Positions 14,068-51,889 of a stretch of DNA of 64,000 nt are shown one piece after another. The DNA lies in contig JAFATB010000014.1 in the NCBI GenBank assembly GCA_019244185.1, forward strand, positions 63,587-127,586. The letters run 5' to 3'. This DNA is from Acidobacteriota bacterium. GTDB lineage: Bacteria > Acidobacteriota > Thermoanaerobaculia > Gp7-AA8. Both the position numbers and the translations under genes were made by a program. The notes under the pieces are model-generated. The model was not told where the DNA came from. It saw nothing but the letters and a program-made list of their open reading frames with translations, and did not search any database. The first letter of the stretch is position 1. Every line of letters starts with the position of its first letter.

Positions 14068-14087
14068 CGGCGCGGGATCGTAGCAGC

Positions 14088-15314: not shown

Positions 15315-15359
15315 ATTGGCCTCCCGGCCAGTTACGGCTTCGGCTCAGCCGGACGCAAC

Positions 15360-15920
15360 ATGAACGACATCATCAGTTTCGACGAGATCGACGAACACGG
15401 GTCGCAGACCGTGCGCGGCGCGTACGACGTTCCGCCCGCGGAGCTCGACCGCGACGAGGCGGCCGGCGGTGCGCGCGTCGAGATCCAGGCGACCGTCGCG
15501 AAGGGCGATCTCGAAGGGGAGTACGTCGCCGACGGCACCGCCGTCGTCACGGCCGACCTCGAGTGTTCGCGCTGCGTCGAGCCGTATCCGTTTGCGAACA
15601 CTTCCGGCTTTCACGTAAGATTCCGCCCTCGTCTCGAGGTCTCCGAGGAGAACGAGGAGATCGAGATCACCGACAAGGAAGAGCTGGACGTTGAGTTCTA
15701 CACGGAACGAACGATCCCGCTGCGCGAGTTCGCGCTCGAGCAGGTCCAGCTGGCGATCCCGATGAAGCCTCTGTGCGACGAGAACTGCCTCGGCCTTTGC
15801 CCCACATGCGGCGCCGTCCGCTCGCGCGAGAAGTGCTCGTGCGAGAACTCCATCGTCGATGAACGATGGGGCGCGCTGCAGGGCATTCGCGAGGAGCTGT
15901 CGAAGAAGAAAGACGTTTAA
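15360..15920 (+). CDS. yceD: YceD/DUF177 family protein (23S rRNA accumulation protein)
   Basis: C-terminal CxxC...CxxC (CDENCLGLCPTCG). Its conserved position immediately upstream of rpmF-plsX. Confidence 0.75.
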   Translation: MNDIISFDEIDEHGSQTVRGAYDVPPAELDRDEAAGGARVEIQATVAKGDLEGEYVADGTAVVTADLECSRCVEPYPFANTSGFHVRFRPRLEVSEENEEIEITDKEELDVEFYTERTIPLREFALEQVQLAIPMKPLCDENCLGLCPTCGAVRSREKCSCENSIVDERWGALQGIREELSKKKDV

Positions 15921-15941
15921 CCTCAATCAGGAGTCATCACC

Positions 15942-16127
15942 ATGCCGAATCCCAAACGACGCCATTCGAAGGCGAGAACCCGCTCGCGCCGCGCGCACGA
16001 CTTCCTCGACGCGAAGTCGCTCTCGACGTGCCCGCAGTGCCACGAGGCGAAGGAGCCGCACCGCGTCTGCCCGAAGTGCGGGTACTACAAGGGCCGCGAA
16101 GTCCTCACCGTCAAGGACGCGCTCTAG
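15942..16127 (+). CDS. rpmF: 50S ribosomal protein L32
   Basis: MPNPKRRHSKARTRSRRAH...CPQCHEAKEPHRVCPKCGYY, 61 aa. Confidence 0.95.
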   Translation: MPNPKRRHSKARTRSRRAHDFLDAKSLSTCPQCHEAKEPHRVCPKCGYYKGREVLTVKDAL

Positions 16128-16139
16128 TTCCTCGACGCG

Positions 16140-17195
16140 ATGGCTGCTGACGGAACGCCTGCCGTCCGCATCGCGCTCGACGCGATGGGAGGCGACAACG
16201 CGCCCGACGAGATCATCAAAGGCGCGTTGCTCGCCGCCGGCGAGTCCCCCGTGGCCATCACGCTCGTCGGCCGCGAAGAAGTCATCGCGGAGAAACTGAA
16301 AGCCTTCGCCGGCGGCAATCCGTCGTCCGCGATCGACATCGCCGACGCGCGCGAAGTCGTGGAGATGGGCGACACCGCGCTCGCGCCGTTGCGCCGCAAA
16401 CGCAACTCGTCCATCCGCATCTGCGCGAACCTCGTCGCCGAAGGGAAAGCGGATGCGATGGTCTCCGCGGGCCACACCGGCGCCGCGATGACCAGCGCGT
16501 ACAAGGTCCTCGGCACGATCGAAGGCGTGAGCCGCCCCGCGCTCGCCGCCATTCTGCCGAGCGCGAAAGGGCATACCGTGCTGCTCGACGTCGGCGCGAA
16601 CGTCGACTCGAAGCCCGCGTATCTGCGCGAGTTCGCGGTCATGGGCCACTTCTACGCGCAGATGATCTTCGGCATCGAGGCGCCGCGCGTCGGCCTGCTC
16701 TCGATCGGCGAGGAAGAAGGCAAAGGCAACGAGCTCACGAAAGAGACGTTCCGCGTTCTCAAGGAAACGGGACTCAACTTCATGGGCAACGCCGAAGGGC
16801 GCGACGTCTTCAACGGCAACGCGGACGTCATCGTCTGCGACGGCTTCATCGGCAACGTCGTGCTGAAGGCAGGCGAAGCCCTCGGCGAGATGGTCAGCAA
16901 GATGCTGCGCGCCGAAGTCACGCGCACGCCGGTGCGCAAGGCCGGCGCGCTGATTCTCCGCGGCGCGTTCGACGACATCAAGAAGCAGATGGACTACTCC
17001 GAATACGGCGGCGCGCCGCTCCTCGGCGTCAACGGCGGCTGCATCATCTCGCACGGCCGCTCGAACGCGAAGGCGGTGAAGAACGCCATCCGCGTCGCGC
17101 GCGAGTTCGCCTCGAACCGCGTCGACGCGAAGATCCGCGCGAAGATCGGCGACCTGCACACGCGCGAGCACGCGTCGGCCATCCTCGCCCAGTAA
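16140..17195 (+). CDS. plsX: phosphate acyltransferase PlsX
   Basis: RIALDAMGGDNAP and GFIGNVVLK motifs, 351 aa. Confidence 0.9.
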   Translation: MAADGTPAVRIALDAMGGDNAPDEIIKGALLAAGESPVAITLVGREEVIAEKLKAFAGGNPSSAIDIADAREVVEMGDTALAPLRRKRNSSIRICANLVAEGKADAMVSAGHTGAAMTSAYKVLGTIEGVSRPALAAILPSAKGHTVLLDVGANVDSKPAYLREFAVMGHFYAQMIFGIEAPRVGLLSIGEEEGKGNELTKETFRVLKETGLNFMGNAEGRDVFNGNADVIVCDGFIGNVVLKAGEALGEMVSKMLRAEVTRTPVRKAGALILRGAFDDIKKQMDYSEYGGAPLLGVNGGCIISHGRSNAKAVKNAIRVAREFASNRVDAKIRAKIGDLHTREHASAILAQ

Positions 17196-17233
17196 GCGCG
17201 GGAAGCCGCGGGCCGCGCTATCATCCGCGCGCC

Positions 17234-18163
17234 ATGGAACACAACACCGCCTTCGTCTTTCCCGGCCAGGGCAGCCAGTACGCCGGCATGGGGAAAGACG
17301 TCGCCGAAAAATACCCGGCTGCGCGCCGCGTCTTCGACGAGATCGACGCCGCCCTCGGCTTCTCGATCTCGCAGCTCTGCTTCGAAGGTCCCGACGAGCA
17401 GCTCAAGCTGACGCAGAACACGCAGCCGGCCATTCTCGCCGTGTCGAGCGCGATTCACGCCGTGCTCGAAGAACGCGGAGCCGCACGACGCGATCTCGTC
17501 GCCGGGCATTCGCTCGGCGAGTACAGCGCCATCGTGAGCGTCGGTGGACTGACGCCGGCGGACGCCGCGAAGATCGTCCACGCGCGCGGCACGTTCATGC
17601 AGGACGCGGTTCCCATCGGCACCGGCGGCATGGCCGCGCTCATCGGCCCGAGCGTCGACGACGCGCGCGCGATCTGCGAGGAAGCGGCGCAGGGCGAGAT
17701 CGTCTCCGTCGCGAACATCAACGCGCCGGGACAGATCGTCATCGCCGGCACGAAAGCCGGCATCGAGCGCGCGATCGAAGTGGCGAAGAAACGCGGCGTG
17801 CGCCGCGCGCTGCCGCTGCCGGTCTCCGCGCCGTTCCACTGCGAGCTGATGAAGCCCGCGGAAGAGCGACTGCGGCCGATCCTCGACGACGCGCCGTTCA
17901 AGGACCTCTGGACCTCGCTCGTGTCGAACGTCGACGCGTCGCCGATCGGCACCGCGACGGCCGTGCGCAATGCGCTGCTGCGGCAGGTCGCGTCGCCGGT
18001 GCGCTGGGTCGAGTCGGTGCAGAAGATGGTGTCGATGGGCGTGAGGCGTTTCGTCGAAATCGGCCCCGGCAACGTGCTCACGGGACTCATCAAACGCATC
18101 GATCCGAACGTGGAGCTCGTGAACGTCTCGGACGTTCCGTCGCTCGAGGCATTTCTCGCATGA
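17234..18163 (+). CDS. fabD: malonyl-CoA:ACP transacylase
   Basis: FVFPGQGSQYAGMG with the GHSLGEYSA active-site serine motif. Confidence 0.9.
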   Translation: MEHNTAFVFPGQGSQYAGMGKDVAEKYPAARRVFDEIDAALGFSISQLCFEGPDEQLKLTQNTQPAILAVSSAIHAVLEERGAARRDLVAGHSLGEYSAIVSVGGLTPADAAKIVHARGTFMQDAVPIGTGGMAALIGPSVDDARAICEEAAQGEIVSVANINAPGQIVIAGTKAGIERAIEVAKKRGVRRALPLPVSAPFHCELMKPAEERLRPILDDAPFKDLWTSLVSNVDASPIGTATAVRNALLRQVASPVRWVESVQKMVSMGVRRFVEIGPGNVLTGLIKRIDPNVELVNVSDVPSLEAFLA

Positions 18164-18888
18164 ACATCGATCTCACCGGAAAGACCGCTCTCGTCACCGG
18201 CGCCTCGCGCGGCATCGGCGAAGCCATCGCGCGCGGGCTGGCGCAGTCGGGCGCGCACGTGCTCTGCGCCGCGCGCTCCGCGGAGCGCGTGAACGAGCTC
18301 GCCGCGCAGCTCGGCAACGCCACCGGCGTCGCGCTCGACATCGCCGCGCCCGACGCGCGCGAACGCGTGGCCGCGCTGGTAAAGGAGCGCGCCGTCGACA
18401 TCCTCGTCAACAACGCCGGGATCACCGAGGATGATCTCTTCATCCGCATGAAGCCGGAGGCGTGGACAAACGTCATCCGCACGAACCTCGACTCCGCGTT
18501 CGCGGTCACGCAGGAAGTGGTCAAGAAGATGATCCGCGCTCGCTGGGGCCGCGTCATCAACATCTCGTCGGTGGTCGGCCTGATGGGCAATCCCGGCCAG
18601 GTGAACTACGCGAGCTCGAAGGCGGCGATCATCGGCTTCACGAAAGCGCTCGCGCTGGAGATCGGCTCGCGCAACGTGACCGTCAATGCGATCGCGCCCG
18701 GCTACATTCAGACCGCGATGACCGACGCCCTCGGCGACGACGCGCGCGAGAAGCTCGCCGAGCGCATCGCCCTGAAACGCCTCGGCACGGTCGAAGACGT
18801 CGCGAACGCCGTCGTCTTCCTCGCGAGCGAGCAGGCCGGCTACATCACCGGCACGGTCGTCAACGTGAGCGGCGGCCTGTACACGTAG
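18160..18888 (+). CDS. fabG: 3-oxoacyl-ACP reductase
   Basis: TALVTGASRGIGEAIA Rossmann motif and the SDR catalytic YxxxK region. 4-nt overlap with fabD. Confidence 0.9.
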   Translation: MNIDLTGKTALVTGASRGIGEAIARGLAQSGAHVLCAARSAERVNELAAQLGNATGVALDIAAPDARERVAALVKERAVDILVNNAGITEDDLFIRMKPEAWTNVIRTNLDSAFAVTQEVVKKMIRARWGRVINISSVVGLMGNPGQVNYASSKAAIIGFTKALALEIGSRNVTVNAIAPGYIQTAMTDALGDDAREKLAERIALKRLGTVEDVANAVVFLASEQAGYITGTVVNVSGGLYT

Positions 18889-18903: not shown

Positions 18904-21900
18904 TCACATCGCGGTGGCCATCTCGACGTAGCGGCACAAGCCGTTGACGAGCTTCATCTGCTCCGGCGTCTTGCACGCGACGTCGAGCAGCCGCGGATTC
19001 GCGACGACGACTGCCAGACAGCGCGCGCGGGAAATCGCGACGTTGAGCCGGTTGCGGCTGAAGAGAAAGTCGATGTCGCGCGGCAGCTCCGCGCCGCTCG
19101 ACGTGGCCATGCTGAAGAAGACCACCGGCGCCTCGCGGCCCTGAAACTTGTCGACCGTTCCGACCGGCACGTCTGCGAGGCCTCGCGCGGCGAGCGCCTG
19201 CGTGAGATGCCGCACCTGCGCGTTGTACGCGGCGACGACGAGAAAGCTCGTCGCGCGCAGCGGCGCCGTCGCGCCGTCGCTGTTCGTGAATGCGCCGCGG
19301 ATCATGCGCGCGATCTCGTCCGCGATGCGCGCTGCTTCCTCGTCGGACGACTGCGTGTTGCCTTCGTGCGCGACGGCGAGGAAGCGCAGGCCGGTCGCGC
19401 GCGCGCCGTCGATCGTCACCGCCTGCCGCGCGCAGCTCTCGTGCGAATGCAGCCGCGACTCGTAGACGACTTCGGAGACGAACGCGCAGACGTCGGGATG
19501 CATGCGCCGCGTGTGCTCGAGGAAGATGCCGCGCGACGGCCGCACGGTCGCGTCGTCGCCGAGGAGATGTTCGAGGACCGAGCACGCGGCGCCGTCGGGA
19601 TGCGAGCCTTGCGAAACCTGCGCGAGCTGCAGCGGATCGCCGAGGAGCACCACGTTGCGCGCGGACGTCGCGACGGCGAGCGCGGTCGCGAGCGACATCT
19701 GCCCCGCTTCGTCGAGAAAGAGATAGTCGAGCGACGCATCCATCGCGTCGTCGGAGAAGAGCCACGCGGTGCCCGCGACGAGCTGCATCGCGCGGTCGGC
19801 GCACTCCTTCGTTTCGCTGGTGGACTCGATCATCGGATTCGGCAGCTTCGAGACGAAGCGCGTCCGCGTGTCGGAGCCTTTCTTGAGGCCGCGCAACCAG
19901 TAGCCTTGCGCGCGTGCGACGTCTTCGACGGCATGCAGCAGGTTGTGAATCGCGGCGTGCGAGTTCGACGTCACGCCGACGCGCTTGCCGGCGCGCAGCA
20001 GCTTCACGATCGCGTGTGCGCCGTTGAACGTCTTGCCGGAGCCGGGAGGTCCTTGCACGAAGATGTACGAGTCGTCGAGCCGCTGCGCGGCGCTCGTGAC
20101 GTCGTCGCCGAGCGCGCCGTCGCGAACGCGCGGCTCGCGTGCGAGCAGGATGTCGTACGCGGCGCGGTACGTCGTCGCATCGCCGTCGCGTACGATCGAC
20201 GTTGCCAAGCGCTGCAACGCTTCGCGAATGGGCGCGGTGGAGATGTCGGGCTTCATGAAGAGCGCGTCGGGCGGCGGCAGGTCCTTCAGTTTCGGTCCGC
20301 GCCGCAAGCGCACGATGCCCTTCGCGTCGTCAATCGATTCGATCGTGCCCGCGGAGTTCGCGCGGTCGTGCACCGCGTCGCCCGGATCGAGCTTGTGCTC
20401 CTGCGGCGGAAACGTGTACGTGACGATGACCGACTTCTTGACCGGCTCGTCCGGCGTGTTCGGATCGGGCGCGAGTCCGCCGAGGCATTCGCTGTCGGCG
20501 ATCAGCTCCTCGTCGGTCATGTTCGTGCGGCGGTCGAACCAGCGCCACCACGCCGGCCGTTCCTCGCGCCGGTGGTAGTAGAGCAGTTGGGCGAGGAGCG
20601 GCATGCCGCGCGCAACGAGCTCCTGGAACAGCGCGTCGTTGCGCTGCTCCTCGGCGATGCGATCCTCGGCGCGCTCCTGCGCCGGCGGCGGCTCTTTCCA
20701 CGCCACGTCGTCGGGGCGGATCGACACGAGCCAGCGCCGCATCTCCACGATCGAGACGCAGTCTTCGCGGTTGTACGACTCGATCTCCGCGAGCATCGCG
20801 CGGTCGTTCGTCTCGAGCCACTGCTCGTACGCGAGCACGGCGCCGCCGGCGTCGGCGACGCCTTCCGACTTGCGCGTGAAGTAGAACGTCTCGATTTTCT
20901 TGAGGCCGTAGCTCGCGTGCGAGACGCGCATCCCCTGGCGGACGATCGACGCGAGGTCGACGAACGCCTCGCGGCGCAGCAGATCGTCGAGCTGCGCCTC
21001 GCGCGTGCCGTGCCGTCCCATCAGCCGCTCGAGCGACGACTTCTCCAGGCCGCCGTAGTGGTAGATGTGCGCGCCCGCTTCAGCGGTGAGCCGCGCGACG
21101 AGGAAGTCCATCACCGACTCGAATGACGCGCGTTCTTCCGCGGCGTCATGCGCCCACCACGCGCGGTACTGCGTCGAGCCGTTTTCCTCCCACGCCGCGC
21201 CGAACAGATACGTGATGCCGTCGCCGAGGAACGGATCGCCTTCGAGATCAAGAAAGACGTCGCCGGGGGAGGGGCGGGGCAGACGAAAGAAGCCGCGGTC
21301 TTTCTCGCGCGGCAGCAGCTCGAACGTGTGCTCGCCGGTGCGGCGCTGCTGCAACTGCAGGCGCGCCTGTTCGTGCAGCGTGACGAACGACTCCTCGGGC
21401 AGCTTGGCGATGCGCGTCGTCAGCGGCGACTCCGCGAGCGCGGTGAGCGTGTGGATGTCGCCGCGTTCGAGCCGCGTCACCTGCGCGCGCTGGATGTTCG
21501 CGACGAGTGAGAGATGATCGACCGCGCGCCAGTGCGCGGAACAATGCGCCCACCAGTCGCACAGCGCGCAGAACTCGACGGGATACGGCGCCGGCGCCCG
21601 GCCGTTCGCGACGAAGTGTTCGAGCGACGTCCGCACGTGCCGGTAGTACGCGGCAAAGTCGGCGACGCGAAACGACTGCCGCTCCTCGGTGCCGATGACG
21701 ACGTGCATCGACTCCGGCGCGACGCCCTGCAGCCGCGCGAGATGCATGCTGTAGTCGGCGAGCTGCAGCAGAAAGTGTGCGCGGACGCTGCGCGCGAGCT
21801 TCGTGTCGATGACCTCGTAGCCGTACGCGCCGAACGCCGGCGAGGGACGCTCGACGCGCATCAGCAGATCGGCGTAACCGATCCAGCGTCCGTCGAAGAA

Positions 21901-22224
21901 CGCGGCCTGATAGACATAGTCGGCGCCGGCCCGCATCGCGGCGAGCGTCTGCGTTTCCGCGCGGCGCAGCGCCTCGGGAGTCCACGGCGCGGGCTCGATC
22001 GCGACGACGCGCTTGCCGTCCGCGCGCAGCTTGTCGACGTACGCGCGCTCGTGCTCCTCGCCCTTGCGCGCGATCAGCTCGTCCATGGCGGACGGCGGCC
22101 GGTACGCGAGCGGCGCGACGCTGCCGCTGAGCGTGCCGCGATCGAGGAACGTCGCGTGATCGCAGCGCACGAACTTCGTGAGGTCGCTGGTGGCGAGAAC
22201 GAGGTCATTGCCGAAGAGCCGCAT
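18904..22224 (-). CDS. Multidomain nuclease-helicase: Cas4/RecB-like PD-(D/E)xK nuclease with Cys cluster, RNase H-like (TM0106-type) domain and Upf1/Dna2-like SF1 helicase
   Basis: N-terminal FCALCDWWAHC Cys cluster typical of Cas4/RecB nucleases. DVFLDLEGDPF... RNase H-like segment. C-terminal GPPGSGKT (Walker A), FLDEAGQ (Walker B), TRRMHPDVCAFVSEVVYESRL and VDKFQGREAPVVFFS...NVAISRAR (SF1 motifs V/VI). Start taken at the Met giving MRLFGND. The frame is open up to 22335. Confidence 0.75.
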   Translation of the reverse strand: MRLFGNDLVLATSDLTKFVRCDHATFLDRGTLSGSVAPLAYRPPSAMDELIARKGEEHERAYVDKLRADGKRVVAIEPAPWTPEALRRAETQTLAAMRAGADYVYQAAFFDGRWIGYADLLMRVERPSPAFGAYGYEVIDTKLARSVRAHFLLQLADYSMHLARLQGVAPESMHVVIGTEERQSFRVADFAAYYRHVRTSLEHFVANGRAPAPYPVEFCALCDWWAHCSAHWRAVDHLSLVANIQRAQVTRLERGDIHTLTALAESPLTTRIAKLPEESFVTLHEQARLQLQQRRTGEHTFELLPREKDRGFFRLPRPSPGDVFLDLEGDPFLGDGITYLFGAAWEENGSTQYRAWWAHDAAEERASFESVMDFLVARLTAEAGAHIYHYGGLEKSSLERLMGRHGTREAQLDDLLRREAFVDLASIVRQGMRVSHASYGLKKIETFYFTRKSEGVADAGGAVLAYEQWLETNDRAMLAEIESYNREDCVSIVEMRRWLVSIRPDDVAWKEPPPAQERAEDRIAEEQRNDALFQELVARGMPLLAQLLYYHRREERPAWWRWFDRRTNMTDEELIADSECLGGLAPDPNTPDEPVKKSVIVTYTFPPQEHKLDPGDAVHDRANSAGTIESIDDAKGIVRLRRGPKLKDLPPPDALFMKPDISTAPIREALQRLATSIVRDGDATTYRAAYDILLAREPRVRDGALGDDVTSAAQRLDDSYIFVQGPPGSGKTFNGAHAIVKLLRAGKRVGVTSNSHAAIHNLLHAVEDVARAQGYWLRGLKKGSDTRTRFVSKLPNPMIESTSETKECADRAMQLVAGTAWLFSDDAMDASLDYLFLDEAGQMSLATALAVATSARNVVLLGDPLQLAQVSQGSHPDGAACSVLEHLLGDDATVRPSRGIFLEHTRRMHPDVCAFVSEVVYESRLHSHESCARQAVTIDGARATGLRFLAVAHEGNTQSSDEEAARIADEIARMIRGAFTNSDGATAPLRATSFLVVAAYNAQVRHLTQALAARGLADVPVGTVDKFQGREAPVVFFSMATSSGAELPRDIDFLFSRNRLNVAISRARCLAVVVANPRLLDVACKTPEQMKLVNGLCRYVEMATAM

Positions 22225-22283
22225 GCCCGCTTTCGACACGCCGCGCAACCGCTTGTGGCGCGCGCCACCTTTCGCGCGGAAGC

Positions 22284-24497
22284 GTGTCGTCAAAGCGGGG
22301 GGAGTTCTTGGACATCGCAAGGGGATCCGCCGCACCGACGCGGCTCGAGCGCATCCTGCAGGCGTCGATCGACCGGAAGCGCAAGCTCGAAGCGCTCGCG
22401 CGGCAGGCCGCCGAAGTCGTCGCGCCGCCGCAAACGCAACCGCGCGCCGCGACGACTGGCGAGTGGCTGCCGCGGGGAACGAGCGCCGGCGTGCACGGCT
22501 TCGCCACCGGCGACTTCGTCTACGTCGGCAACAAGCTGCGCGCGCTGAACGGCTACGGCGTCGAGCCGTCGCTCATCAATCCCGCGCTCCTCGTCGACTC
22601 GACGAACGCCGACGCCTCGGGCAGTGACGTCTCGTACTGGCCGTCGTACACGAACCTCTCGCCATCCAGCCGCCGTGCGTATCTGCAGTGGCTCGCGGGC
22701 GGACGCAACGATCCAGAGATCTCGATCGGCTACGTCTTCGTCTTCTTCTACGGCCTCGAACGCCGCGTCTGCGAGTACGTGCGCGATCGCGGCTCGGACG
22801 CGGACGAGGTGCTCGCGATCGCGCACGAGGTCGCGCGTCTGCTCGACCTCTACGCGACGACGAGCCATTCGTTCGCGTCGTACGCGCGGGCGCTGCTGGA
22901 ATTGATTGCCACGATCGAGCCGCGCTCGCGCACGCTGCTGCGTGGACGCGACGACGACTACACGTACGGTCCGTCGCAGCGGCTGAAGCTCGCCCTAGGC
23001 GAGCTCGCCGTCGCGCACAAGCCGATCCCCGCCGCGCTCGCGTTGCGTTGGGTTCGCGCGTCCTACGCGCGGACGACGCCGATGAAACGCTGCGCCGCCG
23101 AATTCGAGCTGCTCTTTCACGTGCGCTACGCGACGCAGTTCGGCGATGGGCTCGTGGTCAAGCCGAACAAGACGTACGTCGACGCGACCTACTCTGCGGC
23201 GAGCAGCGCGCTCGACACGCTCGTCGTGACGCAGCAGCGCGTCCCCGACATCACGCAGCTCGCGCGTCCGATCGCGAAGCTCATCGCGCTCGCGCAGGAA
23301 TGCACGAACGCGCTCGATCCCTTCAGCCGCTTTCTCGGCCGCAACCCGCAAGGGCGGCAGTCGCTTTCGGCGTTCGCGCTGTTACCCGAGGACCTCGTGG
23401 AGGCGACGCCGTCCGCGGACGCGGCGTCGCTCGCGTCGCTGGTGCGTTCGCGACTCGACGGCGACGGGCTCGCGCTGCTCGGCGCGGGCGAGCTTCTGCC
23501 CTTCGTCCGGCTCGCGCGCCCGGGCAAAGTGTCGAAGAGCGAGTCGATGTTTCTCGCGCAGGCGCTCGAGAAGCTCGGCTACGGCATCGAGCCCGACGTG
23601 CGCCTCGGCGGTCCTGCATTCGACGTCAACGGCCGCGCGATTCTGTTCCGCCGTCTGCCGGATTGTCCGTCCGTCGCATCCGTTGAATATGCGCTGGCGA
23701 TGCTCTGCATGCGCCTCGGCGCGATCGTCAGCGCGGCGGACGACGACGTCTCCGCGGTGGAGCGCGCGCTCCTGCAGAAGCACATCGCCGACACGCTGCA
23801 ACTCTCCGCGGGCGAACGGCAGCGCCTCGCCGCGCATCTCGCGTGGCTGCTCGAAGAGAAGCCCGGCACGAGCGGCCTGAAGAAACATCTCGCCGCGCTG
23901 ACGACCGACGCGCGCCATCACATCGGCCGCCTGCTCATCACCGTTGCCACGACCGACGACGTCGTCGATCCGCGCGAGATGAAGATGCTCGAGAAGCTCT
24001 ACGCGCTCATCGGACTCGACACGGCCGCGCTCTACGCCGACCTCCACGCCGCGCTTGCGACCGACGACGAACCGGTCGCCGTCGATGCGTCGCCTGCCGT
24101 CGCGAAAGGCTTCGCCATTCCGCCGCGTGCGCCGGCGACGGCCATCGACATGAACCGCGTGCGCCTCAAGCTCGCGGAAACGCGGCAGGTGTCGTCGCTC
24201 CTCGCCGAGGTGTTCGCGGAGGAGGAAACGTCCGCGCCGGTGGCGCCAAAGGCCGCGCAGGCGAACGCGATCGGCACGCTCGACGCCGCGCAGTCGGAAC
24301 TGCTGCGGCGTCTCGCGCAGCGCGCCTCGTGGTCGCGCGACGACGTCGAGCATCTCGCCGGCGAGCTCGCGCTGCTGCCCGACGGCGCGCTCGAGGCGAT
24401 CAACGACTACGCGTACGCCACCGCCGGCGAGCCGGTGTGGGAAGACGAAGACCCGCTCACCATCAACACCAACGTCGCCAGGGAGCTCATCGCATGA
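22284..24497 (+). CDS. TerB-N / TerB / TerB-C domain protein (Shango SngA-like)
   Basis: N-terminal segment YWPSYTNLSPSSRRAYLQWL (TerB-N-like). Central bipartite acidic/helical TerB-like region (VEYALAMLCMRLGAIVSAADDDVSAVERALL ... DPREMKMLEKLYALIGLD). Acidic C-terminal TerB-C-like region. First gene of a three-gene cassette. Confidence 0.65.
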   Translation: MSSKRGEFLDIARGSAAPTRLERILQASIDRKRKLEALARQAAEVVAPPQTQPRAATTGEWLPRGTSAGVHGFATGDFVYVGNKLRALNGYGVEPSLINPALLVDSTNADASGSDVSYWPSYTNLSPSSRRAYLQWLAGGRNDPEISIGYVFVFFYGLERRVCEYVRDRGSDADEVLAIAHEVARLLDLYATTSHSFASYARALLELIATIEPRSRTLLRGRDDDYTYGPSQRLKLALGELAVAHKPIPAALALRWVRASYARTTPMKRCAAEFELLFHVRYATQFGDGLVVKPNKTYVDATYSAASSALDTLVVTQQRVPDITQLARPIAKLIALAQECTNALDPFSRFLGRNPQGRQSLSAFALLPEDLVEATPSADAASLASLVRSRLDGDGLALLGAGELLPFVRLARPGKVSKSESMFLAQALEKLGYGIEPDVRLGGPAFDVNGRAILFRRLPDCPSVASVEYALAMLCMRLGAIVSAADDDVSAVERALLQKHIADTLQLSAGERQRLAAHLAWLLEEKPGTSGLKKHLAALTTDARHHIGRLLITVATTDDVVDPREMKMLEKLYALIGLDTAALYADLHAALATDDEPVAVDASPAVAKGFAIPPRAPATAIDMNRVRLKLAETRQVSSLLAEVFAEEETSAPVAPKAAQANAIGTLDAAQSELLRRLAQRASWSRDDVEHLAGELALLPDGALEAINDYAYATAGEPVWEDEDPLTINTNVARELIA

Positions 24498-25837
24498 CGC
24501 AAAGCGAGACCGCGATCAAACCGAAGCACCGCGAAGCCATCATCCAGTCGTTGCGCGCCGGCGTCGTGCCGCGCGCGGGGCAGCAGCACATCCAGGTCGG
24601 ACGCCACGCCGAAGTGAAGGCGCTCCTCGGCGACATCGACCGCATCGCCGCGGGCGGCTCCGCGATCCGCTTCATCATCGGCGAGTACGGCTCGGGCAAG
24701 ACGTTCTTCCTGAACCTGATTCGCGCCATCGCGCTGGAGCGCAACCTCGTCGCCATCAACGCCGATCTCTCGCCCGACCGCCGCCTGCACGCGACCGGCG
24801 GCCAGGCGCGCTCGCTGTACGCGGAGCTGATGCGCAACCTCGCCACGCGCTCGAAGCCGGAATGCGGCGCGATGGCGAGCGTCGTCGAGAAATTCGTCAG
24901 CAGCGCGCTCGGCGAGGCGCGCGGCAGCGGACGCAGCGTCGACGAGATCATCCGCGCGCGGCTCGCATCGCTGCAGGAGCTCGTCGGCGGCTACGACTTC
25001 GCGCAGGTCATCGAGGCGTACTGGCGCGGCCACGACAGCGGCAACGAAGAACTGAAAGACGCCGCGCTGCGCTGGCTCCGCGGCGAGTACGCGACGAAGA
25101 CGGACGCGCGCGCGTCGCTCGGCGTGCGCACCGTCGTCAGCGACGCGAACGTCTACGATCAGCTGAAGCTCTTCGCGCGCTTCGTGCGTCTCGCGGGTTA
25201 CGCCGGGTTTCTGGTCGTGCTCGACGAGCTCGTGAACCTCTACAAGCTCGCCAACGCGCAGGCGCGCAACAGCAACTACGAACAGATCCTGCGCATCTTG
25301 AACGACGTGCTGCAGGGCAGCGCGGAAGGCCTCGGCGTCCTCCTCGGCGGCACGCCGGAGTTTCTCCTCGACACGCGCCGCGGCCTCTACAGCTACTCCG
25401 CGCTGCAATCGCGCCTGGCGCAGAACCAGTTCGCCGCGAACGGCTTCGTCGACTACAGCGGCCCCGTGCTCTCGCTCGCGCAGCTGACGAAGGAAGACCT
25501 CTACGTGCTGCTCGGGAACATCCGCAACGTCTACGCGTGCGGCGACGCCGCGAAGCATCTCGTGCCCGACGAGGCGCTCGAGGCGTTCATGCAGCACTGT
25601 TCGACGCGCATCGGCGACGCGTACTTTCGCACTCCGCGCAACACCGTCACCGCGTTCGTGAGCCTGCTCTCCGTGCTCGAACAAAACGCGCACGCCGACT
25701 GGCGCGAGCTCCTCGGCGCGGTGACGATCGCGCCGGAGCACAACCCCGATCTCGAAGGCGAGATCGTCGACGACGCGGCGCCGGCAGCAGGCACAGCGAA
25801 GGACGAGGACGACGACCTTGCCACCTTCCGCATCTGA
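24494..25837 (+). CDS. P-loop ATPase (Shango SngB-like)
   Basis: ATGA overlap with the upstream gene. Walker A GEYGSGKT and Walker B-like VVLDELVNL. The ORF-track start (23843) is inside the upstream gene. Confidence 0.65.
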   Translation: MTQSETAIKPKHREAIIQSLRAGVVPRAGQQHIQVGRHAEVKALLGDIDRIAAGGSAIRFIIGEYGSGKTFFLNLIRAIALERNLVAINADLSPDRRLHATGGQARSLYAELMRNLATRSKPECGAMASVVEKFVSSALGEARGSGRSVDEIIRARLASLQELVGGYDFAQVIEAYWRGHDSGNEELKDAALRWLRGEYATKTDARASLGVRTVVSDANVYDQLKLFARFVRLAGYAGFLVVLDELVNLYKLANAQARNSNYEQILRILNDVLQGSAEGLGVLLGGTPEFLLDTRRGLYSYSALQSRLAQNQFAANGFVDYSGPVLSLAQLTKEDLYVLLGNIRNVYACGDAAKHLVPDEALEAFMQHCSTRIGDAYFRTPRNTVTAFVSLLSVLEQNAHADWRELLGAVTIAPEHNPDLEGEIVDDAAPAAGTAKDEDDDLATFRI

Positions 25838-28013
25838 GGCGTCGTCGTCGTTCGCGCTGCTGCACGAGCGCGTGCGCCGCTGGATCTGGGACCAGCAATG
25901 GTCCGAGCTGCGCGACGTGCAGGAGCTCGCGATCCAGACGATTCTGCGCGGCGACGGCGACGCGATCGTCACCGCGGCGACGGCGGCGGGCAAAACGGAA
26001 GCGGCGTTTCTGCCGATCTGCTCGACGCTCGTCGGCGACGCCGCGCCCGGCGTGCAGGTGCTCTACGTCGGCCCGCTGAAGGCGCTCATCAACGATCAGT
26101 GGCGGCGGCTCGACGGCCTCTGCGAGTCGCTGGAGATTCCGGTGCATCGCTGGCACGGCGACGTCACGATGAGCGCGCGGCAGAAGCTCATCCGCGATCC
26201 GCACGGCATCCTGCTCATCACGCCGGAGTCGCTCGAAGCCTTGTTCGTGCGCCGCGGCAGCGAAGTCGGCCGCATCTTCGCGGCGCTGCGCTTCGTGGTC
26301 ATCGACGAGCTGCACGCCTTCATCGGCAGCGAGCGCGGCATGCAGCTGCAGTCGCTGCTGCACCGGCTCGAACGCGTGCTGCACCGCCGCGTGCGGCGCG
26401 TCGGCCTCAGCGCCACGCTCGGCGACATGACCGTCGCCGCCAATTTCCTCCGTCCGCCGAACGATCGCGCGCAGGCGCCCGCGATCGTGAAATCGGAGGA
26501 AGCGGGCACCGGCGTGAAGCTGCGCCTGTACGGCTTTCGCCATCCGCTGCATGCCGATGACGAGACGAAGAAAGAGAAAGACGATCCCACGCTCGCGTCG
26601 ATCGCGCGACATCTCTTCGAGCATCTGCGCGGCTCGAACCATCTCGTCTTCGCGAACGCGCGCGGCAGGGTCGAGGGACTCACCGACCGCCTGGCGCGCA
26701 TGTGCAACGAGGCGAAACTGCCGCAGGAGTTCTTCGCGCATCACGGGAGCCTCTCGCGCGAGCTGCGCTTCGAAGTCGAAGATCAGCTCAAGCGCGGCGA
26801 GCGTCCGCTGACCGTGATCTGCACGAGCACGCTGGAGATGGGCATCGACATCGGCGCGGTGAAGAGCGTCGCGCAGATCGGCGTTCCTCCCGGCGTCGCC
26901 GCACTGCGCCAGCGTCTCGGCCGCTCCGGACGCCGCGGCGAGCCCGCCATCCTGCGCATCTACATTCAGGAAGAAACCGTGACCGATCGCTCCGCCCCGC
27001 AGGATGCGATCCGCGCGACGCTCGTTGAAACCATCGCCATGGTGAACCTGATGCTCGAGAAATGGGTCGAGCCGCCGCTCGCGGAACTGGTGCACGGCTC
27101 GACGCTCGTGCAGCAGCTCCTCTCGCTCATCGCGCAATACGGCGGCATCACCGCCGCCGACGCGTACGCGCTGCTCTGCGCGAGCGGGCCGTTCCGCCAC
27201 GTCCCGCGCGCGATGTTCACGTCGCTCGTCGAGCAACTCGAAACGCGCGAGTTGATTCGCAGGGAGCGCGACGGCCTGCTGCTGCACGACGAGAAGGGCG
27301 AGAAGGTCGTCAACCATCACGACTTCTACAGCGCGTTCAAGAGTCCCGACGAATACCGCCTCGTGAGCGGCGGCCGGCAGCTCGGCACGCTGCCGATCGT
27401 GAATCCGGTCAGTGAAGGCTCGTTCCTCATCTTCGCCGGCCGGCGCTGGCGCATCGTCGCCGTCGACGCGGAGAAGCGCGTCATCGACCTCGTGCCGTCG
27501 GCCGCCGGCCGCCTCCCCATCTTCGATCCGAGCGATGGTCCCGACGTGCACGACCGCGTGCGCCGCGAGATGCTCGCGATCTACACGAGCGACGACACGC
27601 CGGTGTATCTCGATGCCGAGGCTGCCGATCTCCTGCATGAGGGCCGCCGCAACTTCGCGCGCTTCGCGCTCGCAAACACGAACTTCATCGCCCGCGGCGA
27701 CGGCGCGCTGTACTTTCCGTGGTACGGCACGCGCGCGATGAACACGCTCGCGCAGCAGCTCGCCGCGCGCGAGATCAAGGTCTCGATGGAAGGTCTCGCG
27801 CTCGTCGCGCTGCACATCACGCCCGACGCTTTGCGCGACGCGGTCGACGCGTGCGAGCGCGAGCGCCCCATCGACACCATCGCGCTCGCGGCGAAAGTGA
27901 AGAACACGCTCGAGGAGAAGTGGGACTGGGCGCTCGATGACGCGACGCGTTTCGCCTCGTACGCGAGCCGCAAGCTGGAGCGGAATCCCATGCCGTCCGC
28001 GCGAGCGCGCTAA
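25818..28013 (+). CDS. DEAD/DEAH-box superfamily-2 helicase (Shango SngC-like)
   Basis: TAATAAGKTEAAFLP (motif I), VIDELH (motif II, DEAH-like), SATLGD (III), helicase C motifs QRLGRSGRRGEP. 20-nt overlap with the ATPase gene. Confidence 0.75.
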   Translation: MPPSASEASSSFALLHERVRRWIWDQQWSELRDVQELAIQTILRGDGDAIVTAATAAGKTEAAFLPICSTLVGDAAPGVQVLYVGPLKALINDQWRRLDGLCESLEIPVHRWHGDVTMSARQKLIRDPHGILLITPESLEALFVRRGSEVGRIFAALRFVVIDELHAFIGSERGMQLQSLLHRLERVLHRRVRRVGLSATLGDMTVAANFLRPPNDRAQAPAIVKSEEAGTGVKLRLYGFRHPLHADDETKKEKDDPTLASIARHLFEHLRGSNHLVFANARGRVEGLTDRLARMCNEAKLPQEFFAHHGSLSRELRFEVEDQLKRGERPLTVICTSTLEMGIDIGAVKSVAQIGVPPGVAALRQRLGRSGRRGEPAILRIYIQEETVTDRSAPQDAIRATLVETIAMVNLMLEKWVEPPLAELVHGSTLVQQLLSLIAQYGGITAADAYALLCASGPFRHVPRAMFTSLVEQLETRELIRRERDGLLLHDEKGEKVVNHHDFYSAFKSPDEYRLVSGGRQLGTLPIVNPVSEGSFLIFAGRRWRIVAVDAEKRVIDLVPSAAGRLPIFDPSDGPDVHDRVRREMLAIYTSDDTPVYLDAEAADLLHEGRRNFARFALANTNFIARGDGALYFPWYGTRAMNTLAQQLAAREIKVSMEGLALVALHITPDALRDAVDACERERPIDTIALAAKVKNTLEEKWDWALDDATRFASYASRKLERNPMPSARAR

Positions 28014-31057: not shown

Positions 31058-34000
31058 GTGGCGAACTACCTCATTGCGGTCGGCGGCACCGGCCAGCACG
31101 TCGCACTCGCGGTGGCCGATTTCATCGCGCTCGCGTACGAGATCTACACCGAAGAATTTCCGAACGTTCAGATGATTCTCGTCGACGCCGATCAGGCGGC
31201 GGACACGGATCAGCCATCAGCGTGGCAGGAGGCGCGCGCGCGGCTCAACGCGCTCGGTCTGCTCGCCGGCGACAGCTTCGAATGCGTCCCGCTTCCGGTG
31301 CACTCGCAGCTCGCCGACTCGCGGCGCATGTACGAGTTCGTGAATCGCCTCGGCGCGTCGTTCGGTCCGAACGCGGCGGACGCGCTGCTGCTGCGCGAAC
31401 AGCGCGAGGTCGACGTGACGACCGGCTTCTACGCGCAGCCACGCGTCGGCGCGATGATGGCCGAATGGCTCTTCAATGAAGTGACGCGCGGCGACGGCGT
31501 GAACCCGCAGCTCGCGCGCATCTTCGCGCTCGCCGGCGATCCGGCGAATCGCATCGTCGTCGCGGGGTCGGGCGTCGGCGGCACCGGCGCGGGCTTCGCG
31601 CCCGCGCTCGTGCGGCGGCTCTCGGCGGCAAGCGGTGGTGGCCGGCTGATGGCGCTCATGGCCACGGAATGGTTCCGCCTCTCGGGCCTGTGCGCGAACC
31701 GCCTTTCGGAATCGGTGCAGAAGAGCAACGCGAACTCCGCGCTGTGGCACGCGGCGCATTCGGGCTCGAGCGCCGTGCGCACGATTCTGTTCGGACATCC
31801 GTCCGTCTCGCGCGCGCCGGAGGAGGAATGCCAGAGCGGCGCGTTCCAGGCGCGCAAGCGCAACCTCACCATTCCGTACTATGCGGCCGCGGCGGCGCTG
31901 TCGTTCTTCGCCGGCGATGCGAATGGCGGCACGCACGTGCCCGCGGCGACGCTCGCGGGCGACGTCGTTGCGCTGCCGAAGTCGCTGCGGATCACGCCGC
32001 GTCTGACGTTGCGCGAGCTCGTCGAGTCGAACGTCGAAGCGGTCGGGCGACTGACGCTCGCATCGGAGTATCTGCGCGGTCGCTATCAGGGATTCGTGCT
32101 GCCGTTCTCGTCGCTGAGCGGCCGGATCGCGGCGCTCGATCAGACCGACCGCCAGCGCATCGACGGTCCGCTCGCCGCGAAGCGCGCGGCCTTGCGCAAC
32201 CTCGGCGTCTCCGACGAGAAGCTGCCCGTCGTGCCGCGCATTCATCGCGGTCTCGCGACGCTGCGCGGCTGGGTCAACGGCAGAGTCGATCGTCCGTACG
32301 ATCTCTGGAAGGACGTTCCGGTCGTGCCGCCGCAGACGACCGAGCGCAAGGCTGAAGCCGTCGCGGCCGACAGCGACACCGCGGCGCTGCTCATCCGCAA
32401 GATCGGTTATGCCAGCCGCGTGACCGGCGGCAACGTCGTTCCGATCACGCAGGCGCAGGTGCGCGAGCTCGTGACCGTCGACGACGTCGACGTATCGAAA
32501 GTGCCGGCGTCGGACGCGGTGGAGCTCACGCTCGGCGACATCTTTCGCAATTGGGAAGCGCGCAACGGCGAGGAGAAGGCCGAGCTCGCGGCGCTGCTCG
32601 TCGAGGACGGGCGCGTGCGGCGTCCAGTGCTCGTCTCCGGTGACAAGGGCGACCGTCCGCGCGAATGGCTGAAGCGCTGGCTGCTGCTCGCGAACCTGCT
32701 CGTCGAGAACAAGCTGACGGTCGAACCGAAATCGCTGCCGTTCACGACGGGAAAGATTCTCTCGTTTCGCGGCATCCCGATCGGCGAGCTCTCGCGCGAG
32801 TTCGTCTGCCTGCCGCTCGTCAACGGCTACTGGAACGACGAGGCGACGATCGGCGCGCTGTGGAATGCGGCGTCGCGGCTCGAGTCGCTCGCGACGTGGT
32901 GCCGCAACACGGCCGCGGTCGCGCGCTGCCGAACGGCCGCACTGCCGGCGTGGCTCGACGTGCTGCTCTTCGCGACCTCGCGCTACGCCGGCGTGACCAA
33001 GCAGTTCACGTCGCAGAGCGTGACTGTGCGCTGGCCCGGCATCGCGGAGCCGGTCTCGCTGCCGCTGCCGAATGCCGCCGCCGGCAGTGCCGACGCGAAA
33101 GACTGCGTAGCCGCGGCGGCGGAGGCGTTCGGCGTGCTCACGCCGCAGCCGTCGCCCGCGGAGATGTCGCCGGCCGTGCGCGCGGTGGTGCAGGAGATCG
33201 CGCGCATCGCGCTCCCGGTTCCGCGGCTCGGCGGCGGCGAAACGAAGAGCATCGTCTTCTCGGAGTTGCTGCCGCCGGCGGCGCGCGACTGCCTCTTCGG
33301 CGAGATCGTCGTCGACACCGACGCGCGATGCGCGTGGCGGCTCGAAGCGACCGCGCGCATCGTCACGTCCGTCGCCGGCGAGTTGCTGACGGAGAACGTC
33401 GGCTGCTTCCGCAACGAGCAGCGGACGGAGTGGCTGACGCCGCTGCGGCGCGAGTACGTCCCGCTGCTCAAGTCGGGCGTCGTTGACGTGCGCAGCGAGG
33501 AGCACGGCCAGGAGCTGCGCGTCAGCGTGAGAGTCCACGACCGCACATTCGTCGAGTCGTACGCGGCGTCGCGCGTGCGTGCGATCAATCCGCTGCTGTT
33601 GCATTGGCCGGCGGCCGTCGCCAGTCCGTCGGCGAGCCTCACGGTGCTTTTCGACGTGCCGGAGCATCGCTACAGCCCGCAGACGGTGTACGCCGTGATG
33701 CACGACGCGCAGGCGAAGGCGTGGACGCTCTCCGCGCCGCTGAGCGAGCGGCACTCGCTGCACTACCTCGCCACCGACGGCAACGTGCCGCACAGCCTCT
33801 CGTTCGACCTCGAGCGTCACGACGTCGGCTTCGTGAAGATCGAGCGCGCGGTGCAGCACCTCGAAGACGCCACGCAGCGCGTCGCCGTCGACTTCGGCAC
33901 ATCGGCAACCGTCGTCGCGATCGACGGCGCGCAGAAAACGGAAGTGCTCGATCTCCTCGCCGCCGGCGCCGATGCGACCGCCGAGGTGTGGAAGGGGAGC

Positions 34001-35344
34001 GCGCTGGAAGCGTTCCAGTGGTACGGGACGCGTCCGGTGGATTCGACGATCCGCGAGAAGCGTCGCGCGCCGAGCGCGCTGGTCTATCTCGGATCGGCGA
34101 AAGATGCGCGTCCGCCGCGGCCGCAGTACGGCGATCACGTCCTGCTCGATCAGGACGACTGGCAGTGGAAGAGCGACGGCACGTCGCTGCTCTTCGACAT
34201 CAAGTGGACGCGCGAGCGCGCGTATCGCGAGGCGTTTCTCGTCCACCACCTCGAGCAGTGCATCGCCGCCGCACTCAGCAAAGGCATCGTGCACAGCCGC
34301 CGGCTCTCCGTCATCTTCACGATGCCGCTGCGGCAGCGCGCCCGCGCGGCGGATTTCGTCGCGGAGATCGAAGGCGTCATCGCGACCTTGCACCGCCGCA
34401 CCGGACTGCAGCTCGAGTCGCGGTTCGCGTACGAGTCGGAAGTCATCGCGCCGATCGAAGCGCCGGCGACCGATGTCGACGCGATCGTGATCGCGGACCT
34501 CGGCGGCGGAACGCTCGATTTGTTCGCGAAGCACTTCGGCCGCGGACGCAGGGGCGGCGCGCGCAACGTCGTCTTTGAGAGCGCGCGCATCGGCGGTCAC
34601 TCGCTCGTCGAATGGCTGACGCGCGACTTCGGCGGCACCGAGCTCGCGGAGTATCGCCGCAAGCTGCGCATCGGCTCCTTGCCGCAGCTCGACGAAGCGT
34701 CGTCGCGCATCGCCGCGAGTTACTTCGACGTCGTGAAGCGCTTCACCGCGCTCTGGATGGATTCGGTCTGGCGCTACTGGACCGGCGGCGACCAGCCAGG
34801 CCGCGTGCACGTGCAACTCCTCGGCATGGGCTGGTCGCTGCCGGCGTCGCCGGACGAGCAGATGGCGCTGCATCTCACCGACATCGCGCGCGCCCTCGGC
34901 TCGCAACTCGCGTACAGCCGCTACGAGGATCCGACGCTGCCCGGCAATCCGAAGGAGCTGCTGGCGCGCCGCACGATCCTGCACGGCGGCGCGACGCGCG
35001 GCGACTTCGTCGCGTTCGAACCGGCGGCGGTGAACGGCATCGAAGTCAGCGTCGCGGGCGAAGTCCGCCGCGACGACGAGCCGCTGCGCGGGCTCGGCGC
35101 GAACACGCCCGCCGTCGGCATCACCGCGAACGGACTGCAGCGCATCGCGAAGCTGACCGGCGCGCGCGAGGAGATCGTCGCCGCCGTGCGCGACGGCACG
35201 CGCATCGCGCTCACCACGCGCTCGACCGGCGTCGACAAACACGACGGCGCCGTGCTCGAAGGCGTGAACGTCTGGGTCGCCAGCCCGCTGGCCATCGCCG
35301 CGGAAACGTACACGCGCCAGGTGCTGCTGCAGGTGCACGCATGA
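31058..35344 (+). CDS. Giant (1428 aa) protein with N-terminal tubulin/FtsZ-like GTPase signature and C-terminal Hsp70/actin-like ATPase signature
   Basis: N-terminus IAVGGTGQHVALAV (T1-loop-like GGxGxx). VVAGSGVGGTGAGFAPALV matches the FtsZ/tubulin T4 signature GxGGGTGxGxAP. C-terminal region: AVDFGTSATVVAIDG (phosphate-1-like DxGT[ST]) and IVIADLGGGTLDLFA (Hsp70 phosphate-2 DLGGGTFD-like). These are motif-level assignments only. Confidence 0.6.
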   Translation: MANYLIAVGGTGQHVALAVADFIALAYEIYTEEFPNVQMILVDADQAADTDQPSAWQEARARLNALGLLAGDSFECVPLPVHSQLADSRRMYEFVNRLGASFGPNAADALLLREQREVDVTTGFYAQPRVGAMMAEWLFNEVTRGDGVNPQLARIFALAGDPANRIVVAGSGVGGTGAGFAPALVRRLSAASGGGRLMALMATEWFRLSGLCANRLSESVQKSNANSALWHAAHSGSSAVRTILFGHPSVSRAPEEECQSGAFQARKRNLTIPYYAAAAALSFFAGDANGGTHVPAATLAGDVVALPKSLRITPRLTLRELVESNVEAVGRLTLASEYLRGRYQGFVLPFSSLSGRIAALDQTDRQRIDGPLAAKRAALRNLGVSDEKLPVVPRIHRGLATLRGWVNGRVDRPYDLWKDVPVVPPQTTERKAEAVAADSDTAALLIRKIGYASRVTGGNVVPITQAQVRELVTVDDVDVSKVPASDAVELTLGDIFRNWEARNGEEKAELAALLVEDGRVRRPVLVSGDKGDRPREWLKRWLLLANLLVENKLTVEPKSLPFTTGKILSFRGIPIGELSREFVCLPLVNGYWNDEATIGALWNAASRLESLATWCRNTAAVARCRTAALPAWLDVLLFATSRYAGVTKQFTSQSVTVRWPGIAEPVSLPLPNAAAGSADAKDCVAAAAEAFGVLTPQPSPAEMSPAVRAVVQEIARIALPVPRLGGGETKSIVFSELLPPAARDCLFGEIVVDTDARCAWRLEATARIVTSVAGELLTENVGCFRNEQRTEWLTPLRREYVPLLKSGVVDVRSEEHGQELRVSVRVHDRTFVESYAASRVRAINPLLLHWPAAVASPSASLTVLFDVPEHRYSPQTVYAVMHDAQAKAWTLSAPLSERHSLHYLATDGNVPHSLSFDLERHDVGFVKIERAVQHLEDATQRVAVDFGTSATVVAIDGAQKTEVLDLLAAGADATAEVWKGSALEAFQWYGTRPVDSTIREKRRAPSALVYLGSAKDARPPRPQYGDHVLLDQDDWQWKSDGTSLLFDIKWTRERAYREAFLVHHLEQCIAAALSKGIVHSRRLSVIFTMPLRQRARAADFVAEIEGVIATLHRRTGLQLESRFAYESEVIAPIEAPATDVDAIVIADLGGGTLDLFAKHFGRGRRGGARNVVFESARIGGHSLVEWLTRDFGGTELAEYRRKLRIGSLPQLDEASSRIAASYFDVVKRFTALWMDSVWRYWTGGDQPGRVHVQLLGMGWSLPASPDEQMALHLTDIARALGSQLAYSRYEDPTLPGNPKELLARRTILHGGATRGDFVAFEPAAVNGIEVSVAGEVRRDDEPLRGLGANTPAVGITANGLQRIAKLTGAREEIVAAVRDGTRIALTTRSTGVDKHDGAVLEGVNVWVASPLAIAAETYTRQVLLQVHA

Positions 35345-45084: not shown

Positions 45085-45090
45085 GCGCCG

Positions 45091-47298: not shown

Positions 47299-47735
47299 TT
47301 GACGAGCCTCTCTGCTTCGTCCTGGGTCACGTCGCCGTACGTCCAGATGCATTTGGAGACGTCTTTGTAGGCGACGCCGCGGAATTCGTGCAGGCGCAGG
47401 AAGCGCTTCACGCCGCCGCCGTACGCGTCGTATTCGCCGGCGCCGTAGTGCATCGCTTCGATCATCGAGCCGTCGAGGATGATCCCGGTCTCGAGGAGCA
47501 GCACGCGGCAGTCGCGGCCGGCGGCGTTCGCGCGGATGTGCCACGCGTGGAAGCGCGACGCGTCGTACAGCTGGGCAAGCGACCGGGCCGCCGCGACGTG
47601 CTGGCCGGCGTTCGCGGCCGAGCGCTTCGCGGTGCATTGCGCGCCGCCGAGGATCAGGAGTGCGCCGAGGAGGAATGTGCGCGCCAAGGGTTGATCCTTT
47701 CGAAAAGGTGCGCCGCCCGTTGCCGGGCGGCGCAC
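47289..47735 (-). CDS. small secreted hypothetical protein
   Basis: Hydrophobic N-terminal segment LARTFLLGALLILGGAQC. Sits in an operon between caspase-family genes. Confidence 0.4.
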   Translation of the reverse strand: MRRPATGGAPFRKDQPLARTFLLGALLILGGAQCTAKRSAANAGQHVAAARSLAQLYDASRFHAWHIRANAAGRDCRVLLLETGIILDGSMIEAMHYGAGEYDAYGGGVKRFLRLHEFRGVAYKDVSKCIWTYGDVTQDEAERLVKCR

Positions 47736-47748
47736 CGCGGAAACGAAA

Positions 47749-48825: not shown

Positions 48826-48844
48826 GGTTGTTCTCCTTTTTCGT

Positions 48845-51859: not shown

Positions 51860-51889
51860 ATACGCGTTTCGCGGAATCGAGAGCAGGCG

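Follow-up and report, generated by a model that had tools for sequence, protein, structure and literature searches.

The 64-kb window analysed here, the whole stretch of DNA with a G+C content of ~69% throughout, comes from the chromosome of an uncultured, Thermoanaerobaculia-like member of the Acidobacteriota. At positions 22284–28013 it carries three genes that we identify, with a probability of roughly 85%, as a complete and intact Shango (SngABC) anti-phage operon. The original prediction had read the locus as Shango from its gene composition and order. Scoring the proteins against the PADLOC hidden Markov model (HMM) library bears this out, as the best matches are to SngA (1.6e-89), SngB (3.8e-182) and SngC (2e-263), each near full length. 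Gene order and spacing also agree with those of Shango loci elsewhere. The identification is thus based on HMM E-values and coverage, on intact sequence motifs and on the conservation of the trio as a unit across phyla and plasmids. The Pfam E-values of the three proteins exclude chance, and the E-values and coverage make it very likely that the full PADLOC and DefenseFinder pipelines would call the locus as Shango. It is a further, routine copy of an already described system, new only as an instance from an uncultured representative of a poorly studied phylum, and within reach of standard defence-finder tools.

Open reading frames (ORFs) were read directly from the sequence. The interval is wholly occupied, gap-free, by three ORFs on the + strand with no ORF between them: sngA (22284–24497, 737 amino acids [aa], GTG start), sngB (24494–25837, 447 aa, ATG start) and sngC (25818–28013, 731 aa, TTG start). 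The three are translationally coupled. The ATG of sngB lies on the TGA of sngA in an ATGA overlap (24494–24497), and the TTG of sngC precedes the stop of sngB, giving a 20-nt overlap (25818–25837). The 4-nt overlap is retained in two close relatives (L101 and L102) and the 20-nt overlap in one of them. A scan of third-position G+C supports the frames of sngA and sngC; sngB is absent from its output because the open frame of this gene runs upstream into a non-coding frame. A metagenome contig of 291 kb that is identical to this region has public gene calls for the same genes, with lengths of 1106, 737, 447, 731 and 522 aa. The sole uncertainty in the gene models concerns the start of sngA, which could be TTG 22308, with GGGGGGAG located 3 nt upstream, instead of GTG 22284, the start picked in the public call.

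The first protein, SngA, had been described as carrying TerB-N-like, TerB-like and TerB-C-like regions, and all three are recovered by Pfam above the gathering scores. The TerB_N domain (PF13208, 2.5e-46) covers residues 65–259 (22476–23060, + strand), the central TerB helical bundle (PF05099, 1e-10) residues 476–582 (23709–24029, +) and the TerB_C domain (PF15615, 9.3e-22) residues 616–735 (24129–24488, +). In an alignment of 54 sequences, a YGLERR motif in TerB_N (Y156–R161) and two acidic pairs in the TerB bundle (D486/E493 and D558/E565) are invariant, and an EPDxR motif is also seen. An AlphaFold2 model of the protein (mean predicted local distance difference test score 87.4) confirms a TerB fold at residues ~467–592. 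The PADLOC match spans residues 41–735. An apparent insertion of ~200 aa relative to the 528-position profile was considered as a sign of a variant SngA and rejected; SngA from enterobacterial plasmids aligns with residues 39–735 in one piece, so the architecture is canonical.

The SngA proteins of relatives come in two lengths. About half of the closest are 1010–1090 aa long (P0002, P0005–P0012, P0014 and others; L001, L002, L009, L014 and L081) and bear an N-terminal extension of ~300 aa that is missing from the SngA of the window. The extension matches no Pfam family. Its first part is hydrophobic and probably forms two membrane helices; a conserved module comes after it and bears the motif WLYANKDGSPDRRRxNNR. 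Among close relatives the two forms are intermixed. The short, soluble SngA of the window and the long, putatively membrane-anchored proteins of its close relatives form a natural pair in which to ask whether Shango senses at the membrane.

The second protein, SngB, is best described from its sequence as a BrxD-like ATPase of the ORC/Cdc6-type AAA+ class. It aligns end to end with the PADLOC profile (residues 5–447 against positions 3–439 of 439) and matches the Pfam family BrxC_BrxD (PF10923) at 5.4e-157. As anticipated for a P-loop ATPase whose start overlaps the preceding stop codon, both Walker A (GEYGSGKT, residue 63) and Walker B (LVVLDE, residue 240) are intact.

The third protein, SngC, also aligns end to end with its profile (residues 9–723 against positions 3–711 of 720). 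Pfam detects DEAD (1.2e-30) and Helicase_C (1.1e-16) domains and, weakly, an Lhr winged helix, while the PADLOC profile of BrxHI matches residues 10–711 at 8.9e-123. Superfamily 2 (SF2) motifs I (AAGKT), II (DELH, residue 163), III (SAT, residue 198) and VI (QRLGRSGR, residue 365) are intact. The expectation of an SF2 helicase overlapping sngB by 20 nt therefore stands, but the label 'DEAD-box' does not, because motif II reads DELH; SngC is a DExH helicase of the Lhr/BrxHI type. The closest solved structures are mycobacterial Lhr (5v9x, 2.6e-34) and Bacillus subtilis MrfA/YprA (6znp), whereas a search of PDB sequences gives no match for SngA or SngB. SngC shares the SF2 DExH core with these repair helicases (PDB 5v9x, 7lhl and 6znp), along with its weak winged-helix match. 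However, the likeness is confined to the helicase core, and SngC belongs to a defence operon and to a single clade of defence helicases formed by SngC, BrxHI, DruE and DpdJ (PMC12278908).

These family relationships also bring type 2 BREX (Pgl) into consideration, as the trio could be a remnant or satellite of such a system. BrxD is classed with the ORC/Cdc6 AAA+ ATPases; it and BrxHI make up a tightly linked pair in which BrxD is the proposed loader of the helicase (PMC12839542). SngB falls in PF10923 together with BrxD and matches the PADLOC BrxD profile at 6.8e-52, SngC matches BrxHI as given above, and both systems have the ATPase gene next to, and linked with, the helicase gene. Against this, the Sng profiles outscore the Brx profiles by far for both proteins, and SngB reaches only 170.4 bits with the NCBIfam BrxD equivalog NF033438, whose cut-off is 350. 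Neither PglZ, PglX nor BrxC is seen among the 25 listed of the 35 PADLOC families that match the 26 other called genes, and the only PglW match (2.3e-24) is probably to a kinase gene at 55853–59164. The gene upstream of the ATPase–helicase pair encodes the TerB protein that defines Shango, in place of the methylation-based BREX core. A BREX origin was rejected on the missing core families and the low equivalog score, and we regard it as extremely improbable.

The distribution of relatives agrees with the assignment to Shango. Scanning a single genome from each species yielded 217 relatives of SngB, the best 80 of which (62–87% identity) were kept for comparison. These 80 span Acidobacteriota, Actinomycetota, Pseudomonadota, Cyanobacteria, Spirochaetes, Myxococcota and other phyla, with the closest (82–87% identity) in metagenome-assembled genomes of Thermoanaerobaculia and Acidobacteriota, the group from which the window likely stems. 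Contiguous sngA-sngB-sngC genes occur in 64 of the 68 loci from species representatives that have enough flanking sequence. The four departures from this arrangement are an insertion of 6.7 kb between sngA and sngB in a member of the Desulfuromonadales (L025, 3238–10001), one of ~1 kb at the same place in L030, a split sngC in L048, and a locus from Burkholderiaceae (L071) in which sngC is not detectable within the 10 kb flank. All-versus-all clustering of the ORFs flanking the 80 loci, a comparison contaminated by shadow ORFs in GC-rich DNA, revealed no widely conserved family beyond SngABC.

On plasmids, SngB matches 699 records, mostly from Klebsiella and Salmonella, of which 545 are conjugative. 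The annotated Shango proteins of enterobacterial plasmids measure 769 (SngA), 438 (SngB) and 731–740 aa (SngC), and the gene sizes in the window resemble these. None of 50,697 phage records matches SngB, and the matches to PHROGs are generic only.

A different reading of the trio is that it processes DNA in a housekeeping or stress-response role, connected with metal or tellurite stress as TerB-linked genes were originally predicted to be, and does not serve immunity. The TerB domain derives from the tellurite-resistance cassette, and the locus is flanked by housekeeping genes with no marks of a mobile element found beside it. Anantharaman et al. (2012), as cited in PMC10250203 and bioRxiv 2022.05.11.491447, reportedly tied Ter domains to DNA processing. 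However, Shango has a patchy occurrence even at close range, and its chromosomal context differs from one close relative to the next. SngB retains 62–70% identity between phyla, and conjugative plasmids carry the system in abundance. These features argue for a defence cassette that moves horizontally. No terZ, terA, terC, terD or terE genes were found nearby. A ter operon was likewise rejected, as TerB is embedded in a protein of 737 aa instead of being small and stand-alone, and other Ter families are not among the neighbours. Moreover, homologous trios show measured anti-phage activity (PMC10250203; bioRxiv 2022.05.11.491447). A stress module is therefore improbable.

Shango was found independently in Pseudomonas aeruginosa PA14 (Johnson et al. 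2023, PMC10250203) and in Escherichia coli (Millman et al. 2022, bioRxiv 2022.05.11.491447). The systems from both hosts are reported to reduce phage plating 10–100-fold; in PA14 the efficiency of plating changed by this factor and liquid cultures were protected (PMC10250203). The locus in the window encodes the equivalent three proteins in the same order (TerB_N/TerB_C protein, ATPase, DExH helicase), and the genes are tightly coupled in both. It differs in its host and in divergence: SngA is ~32% identical to the copies on enterobacterial plasmids, and the identity of SngB to enterobacterial copies is estimated at ~60%, from plasmid matches that fall mostly in the 60–80% band. It also lies in a chromosomal housekeeping context, whereas the PA14 copy occupies the cDHS1 hotspot, and it has a divergent nuclease-helicase of the TM0106 type as its neighbour.

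The domain families suggest, tentatively, a scheme for how the system might act. SngB, a BrxD-family member of the ORC/Cdc6-type AAA+ ATPases, would oligomerise and load or activate SngC, which would act as an Lhr/BrxHI-type 3'-5' DExH translocase on phage DNA or replication intermediates. SngA, with a TerB bundle of the metal-binding type set between TerB_N and TerB_C, would serve as sensor or scaffold and might hold the ATPase–helicase pair inactive until an infection cue arrives. Interference would then be direct, through unwinding or displacement on the foreign DNA, or would proceed via a recruited nuclease, and would not involve killing of the cell. The last point is favoured because the trio lacks a nuclease, a toxin and a membrane-spanning segment: scans with Pfam, PADLOC and NCBIfam found no nuclease or toxin domain in any of the three proteins, and none has a membrane-like hydrophobic stretch (maximum 19-residue Kyte-Doolittle mean of 1.66). 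TerB-type domains with a proposed sensing role, possibly at the membrane, also occur in Bunzi (BnzA) and Dionysus (DinB) (bioRxiv 2022.05.11.491447; bioRxiv 2025.09.30.679545). In those systems, however, TerB is paired with membrane or pore-forming proteins, whereas in SngA of the window it sits between TerB_N and TerB_C, has an ATPase and a helicase as its partners, and comes without a membrane segment. As a whole the scheme is possible, but we would not rank it as probable.

Several points weigh against the interpretation of the locus as a Shango operon that works in this way. Published data on protection from phage come from the PA14 and E. coli systems only (PMC10250203; bioRxiv 2022.05.11.491447). 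The mechanism of Shango was unpublished as of 2025, so every mechanistic step above is drawn from domain families; no study of it was found in the literature up to mid-2026, and a 2025 preprint still calls the mechanism of protection by TerB proteins unclear (bioRxiv 2025.09.30.679545). Fold searches with TerB_N and TerB_C of SngA returned no solved structural relatives and no hint of an activity. Finally, about half of the closest SngA relatives appear to be membrane-anchored through the extension that the protein of the window lacks, so the sensing step may differ between the short and long forms.

Immediately upstream of sngA, on the opposite strand, lies a gene outside canonical Shango that encodes a protein of 1106 aa (18904–22224, − strand). 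Alignments of homologues and public gene calls indicate that it probably starts at ATG 22224 and not at the longest-ORF start, 22335. The product belongs to the family 'TM0106 family RecB-like putative nuclease' (TIGR03491, 1.3e-77). It is made up of three regions: a Cas4-like PD-(D/E)xK module with four cysteines (C21, C219, C222 and C228) and an IDTK motif, an RNase_H_2 domain (PF13482), and an Upf1/IGHMBP2-like superfamily 1 (SF1) helicase (AAA_11/12) with GPPGSGKT and LFLDE motifs. It has no full-length match to any known defence protein in PADLOC. An assignment to Mokosh was rejected, as the MkoA match covers only the C-terminal part of the helicase (residues 839–1132 of the 1143-aa longest-ORF translation) and a phospholipase D (PLD) domain is absent.

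The two divergent genes are separated by an intergenic region of 59 bp (22225–22283). Within it lies a perfect 14-bp palindrome, GTGGCGCGCGCCAC, at 22255–22268, and half-sites resembling GTGGC...GCCAC occur at the equivalent position in two related loci (L006 and L007). The palindrome may be a candidate operator, although its significance is modest because the 64 kb contain 24 palindromes of this kind and length. The sequence TTTCGCGCGGA-GCGTGTC is conserved immediately before sngA.

This arrangement raises the question of whether the working unit in Thermoanaerobaculia consists of four genes, with the adjacent TM0106-family nuclease-SF1 helicase supplying the nuclease effector of Shango. The two transcription units share the short intergenic region, and the divergent block recurs in at least three chromosomal contexts, flanked in the window by fabG and a PMT_2 gene, in L103 by Glycos_transf_2 and an unknown gene, and in L104 by Peptidase_S41 and a methyltransferase. 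In L014 a homologue with 52% identity (13489–16917) is found instead 3' of sngC and co-directional with it, with 65 nt of overlap between its start (ATG) and the 3' end of sngC. In metagenomes, the two close homologues of the nuclease-helicase (69% identity; L081 and L089) both adjoin Shango, and in PA14 a gene for a 'large multi-domain helicase', which may or may not be homologous, is located directly upstream of the system (PMC10250203). In all, the gene was found beside Shango in L001, L002, L005, L006, L007, L009, L014, L019, L028, L081 and L089. However, 69 of the 80 genome loci lack it, as do the Shango loci of enterobacterial plasmids, and in two close relatives of the window (L101 and L102) the trio stands alone among housekeeping genes. 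The reverse also occurs. Full-length homologues (~41% identity) are found on plasmids without Shango, where their neighbours are defence-type genes of other kinds (ubiquitin-like Bil-type genes, DUF2357, HEPN and a restriction endonuclease), and no Shango lies within 10 kb of the homologues in L082 and L088. In L019 the nuclease-helicase is truncated at 193 aa while Shango is intact. Based on these observations a four-gene system seems unlikely, and the nuclease-helicase and Shango are more likely two separate systems that travel together. If the four-gene unit were nevertheless real, Shango in Thermoanaerobaculia would have recruited the nuclease-helicase as a fourth component, either transcribed divergently from a common 59-bp control region or joined to the operon 3' of sngC, and this would indicate where the nuclease step absent from Shango immunity comes from. 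Its recurrent association makes the nuclease-helicase a candidate effector for the trio that can be put to the test.

The wider surroundings are those of an ordinary chromosomal region. Upstream of the block formed by the nuclease-helicase and Shango are yceD, rpmF, plsX, fabD and fabG. In the rpmF-plsX-fabD-fabG cluster (16140–18888, + strand) fabH is missing between plsX and fabD, as is acpP-fabF past fabG, and the block itself starts 15 nt beyond fabG. Downstream, sngC overlaps a convergent PMT_2 glycosyltransferase gene by 4 nt, which is followed by a small ORF, tRNA-Arg(TCG) and tRNA-Thr(CGT). The remainder of the window holds mostly housekeeping genes. No integrase, boundary repeat or shift in composition (GC) was found in the 64 kb; the only repeats at possible island boundaries are low-identity, GC-rich chance repeats, with no direct repeat derived from a tRNA gene, and terminator-like sites are no more frequent than in shuffled sequence. 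The original prediction had placed the trio in a defence island next to a nuclease-helicase and tRNA genes. The nuclease-helicase is indeed an immediate neighbour and the sole candidate defence gene among the neighbours, but the tRNA genes are 1.6 kb away, past the glycosyltransferase gene. Given the housekeeping flanks and the lack of integrase, boundary repeat and compositional shift, the reading as a 'defence island' is weakly supported and seems to overstate the context.

Three other features of the window were noted. Just past the tRNA genes, a gene at 31058–35344 (+ strand) encodes a protein of 1428 aa for which Pfam, NCBIfam, PADLOC, PHROGs and PDB sequences give nothing significant; the only match is a sub-threshold one to Tubulin_2 at residues 6–56. 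The kinase gene at 55853–59164 (+) encodes a Ser/Thr protein kinase of 1104 aa with tetratricopeptide (TPR) repeats. This one gene is probably the source of the many matches to PD-T4-6, PglW and MkoA profiles in the window, which are not evidence of a defence gene because the kinase domain is generic. Between these two features and 14 kb from Shango, five co-directional genes (42443–51907, − strand) encode proteins of 527 aa (unknown), 354 aa (DUF4236), 848 aa (caspase/Peptidase_C14; PADLOC 'caspase', 6.1e-23), 375 aa (unknown) and 1020 aa (CHAT domain). This cluster may be a protease-based conflict system.

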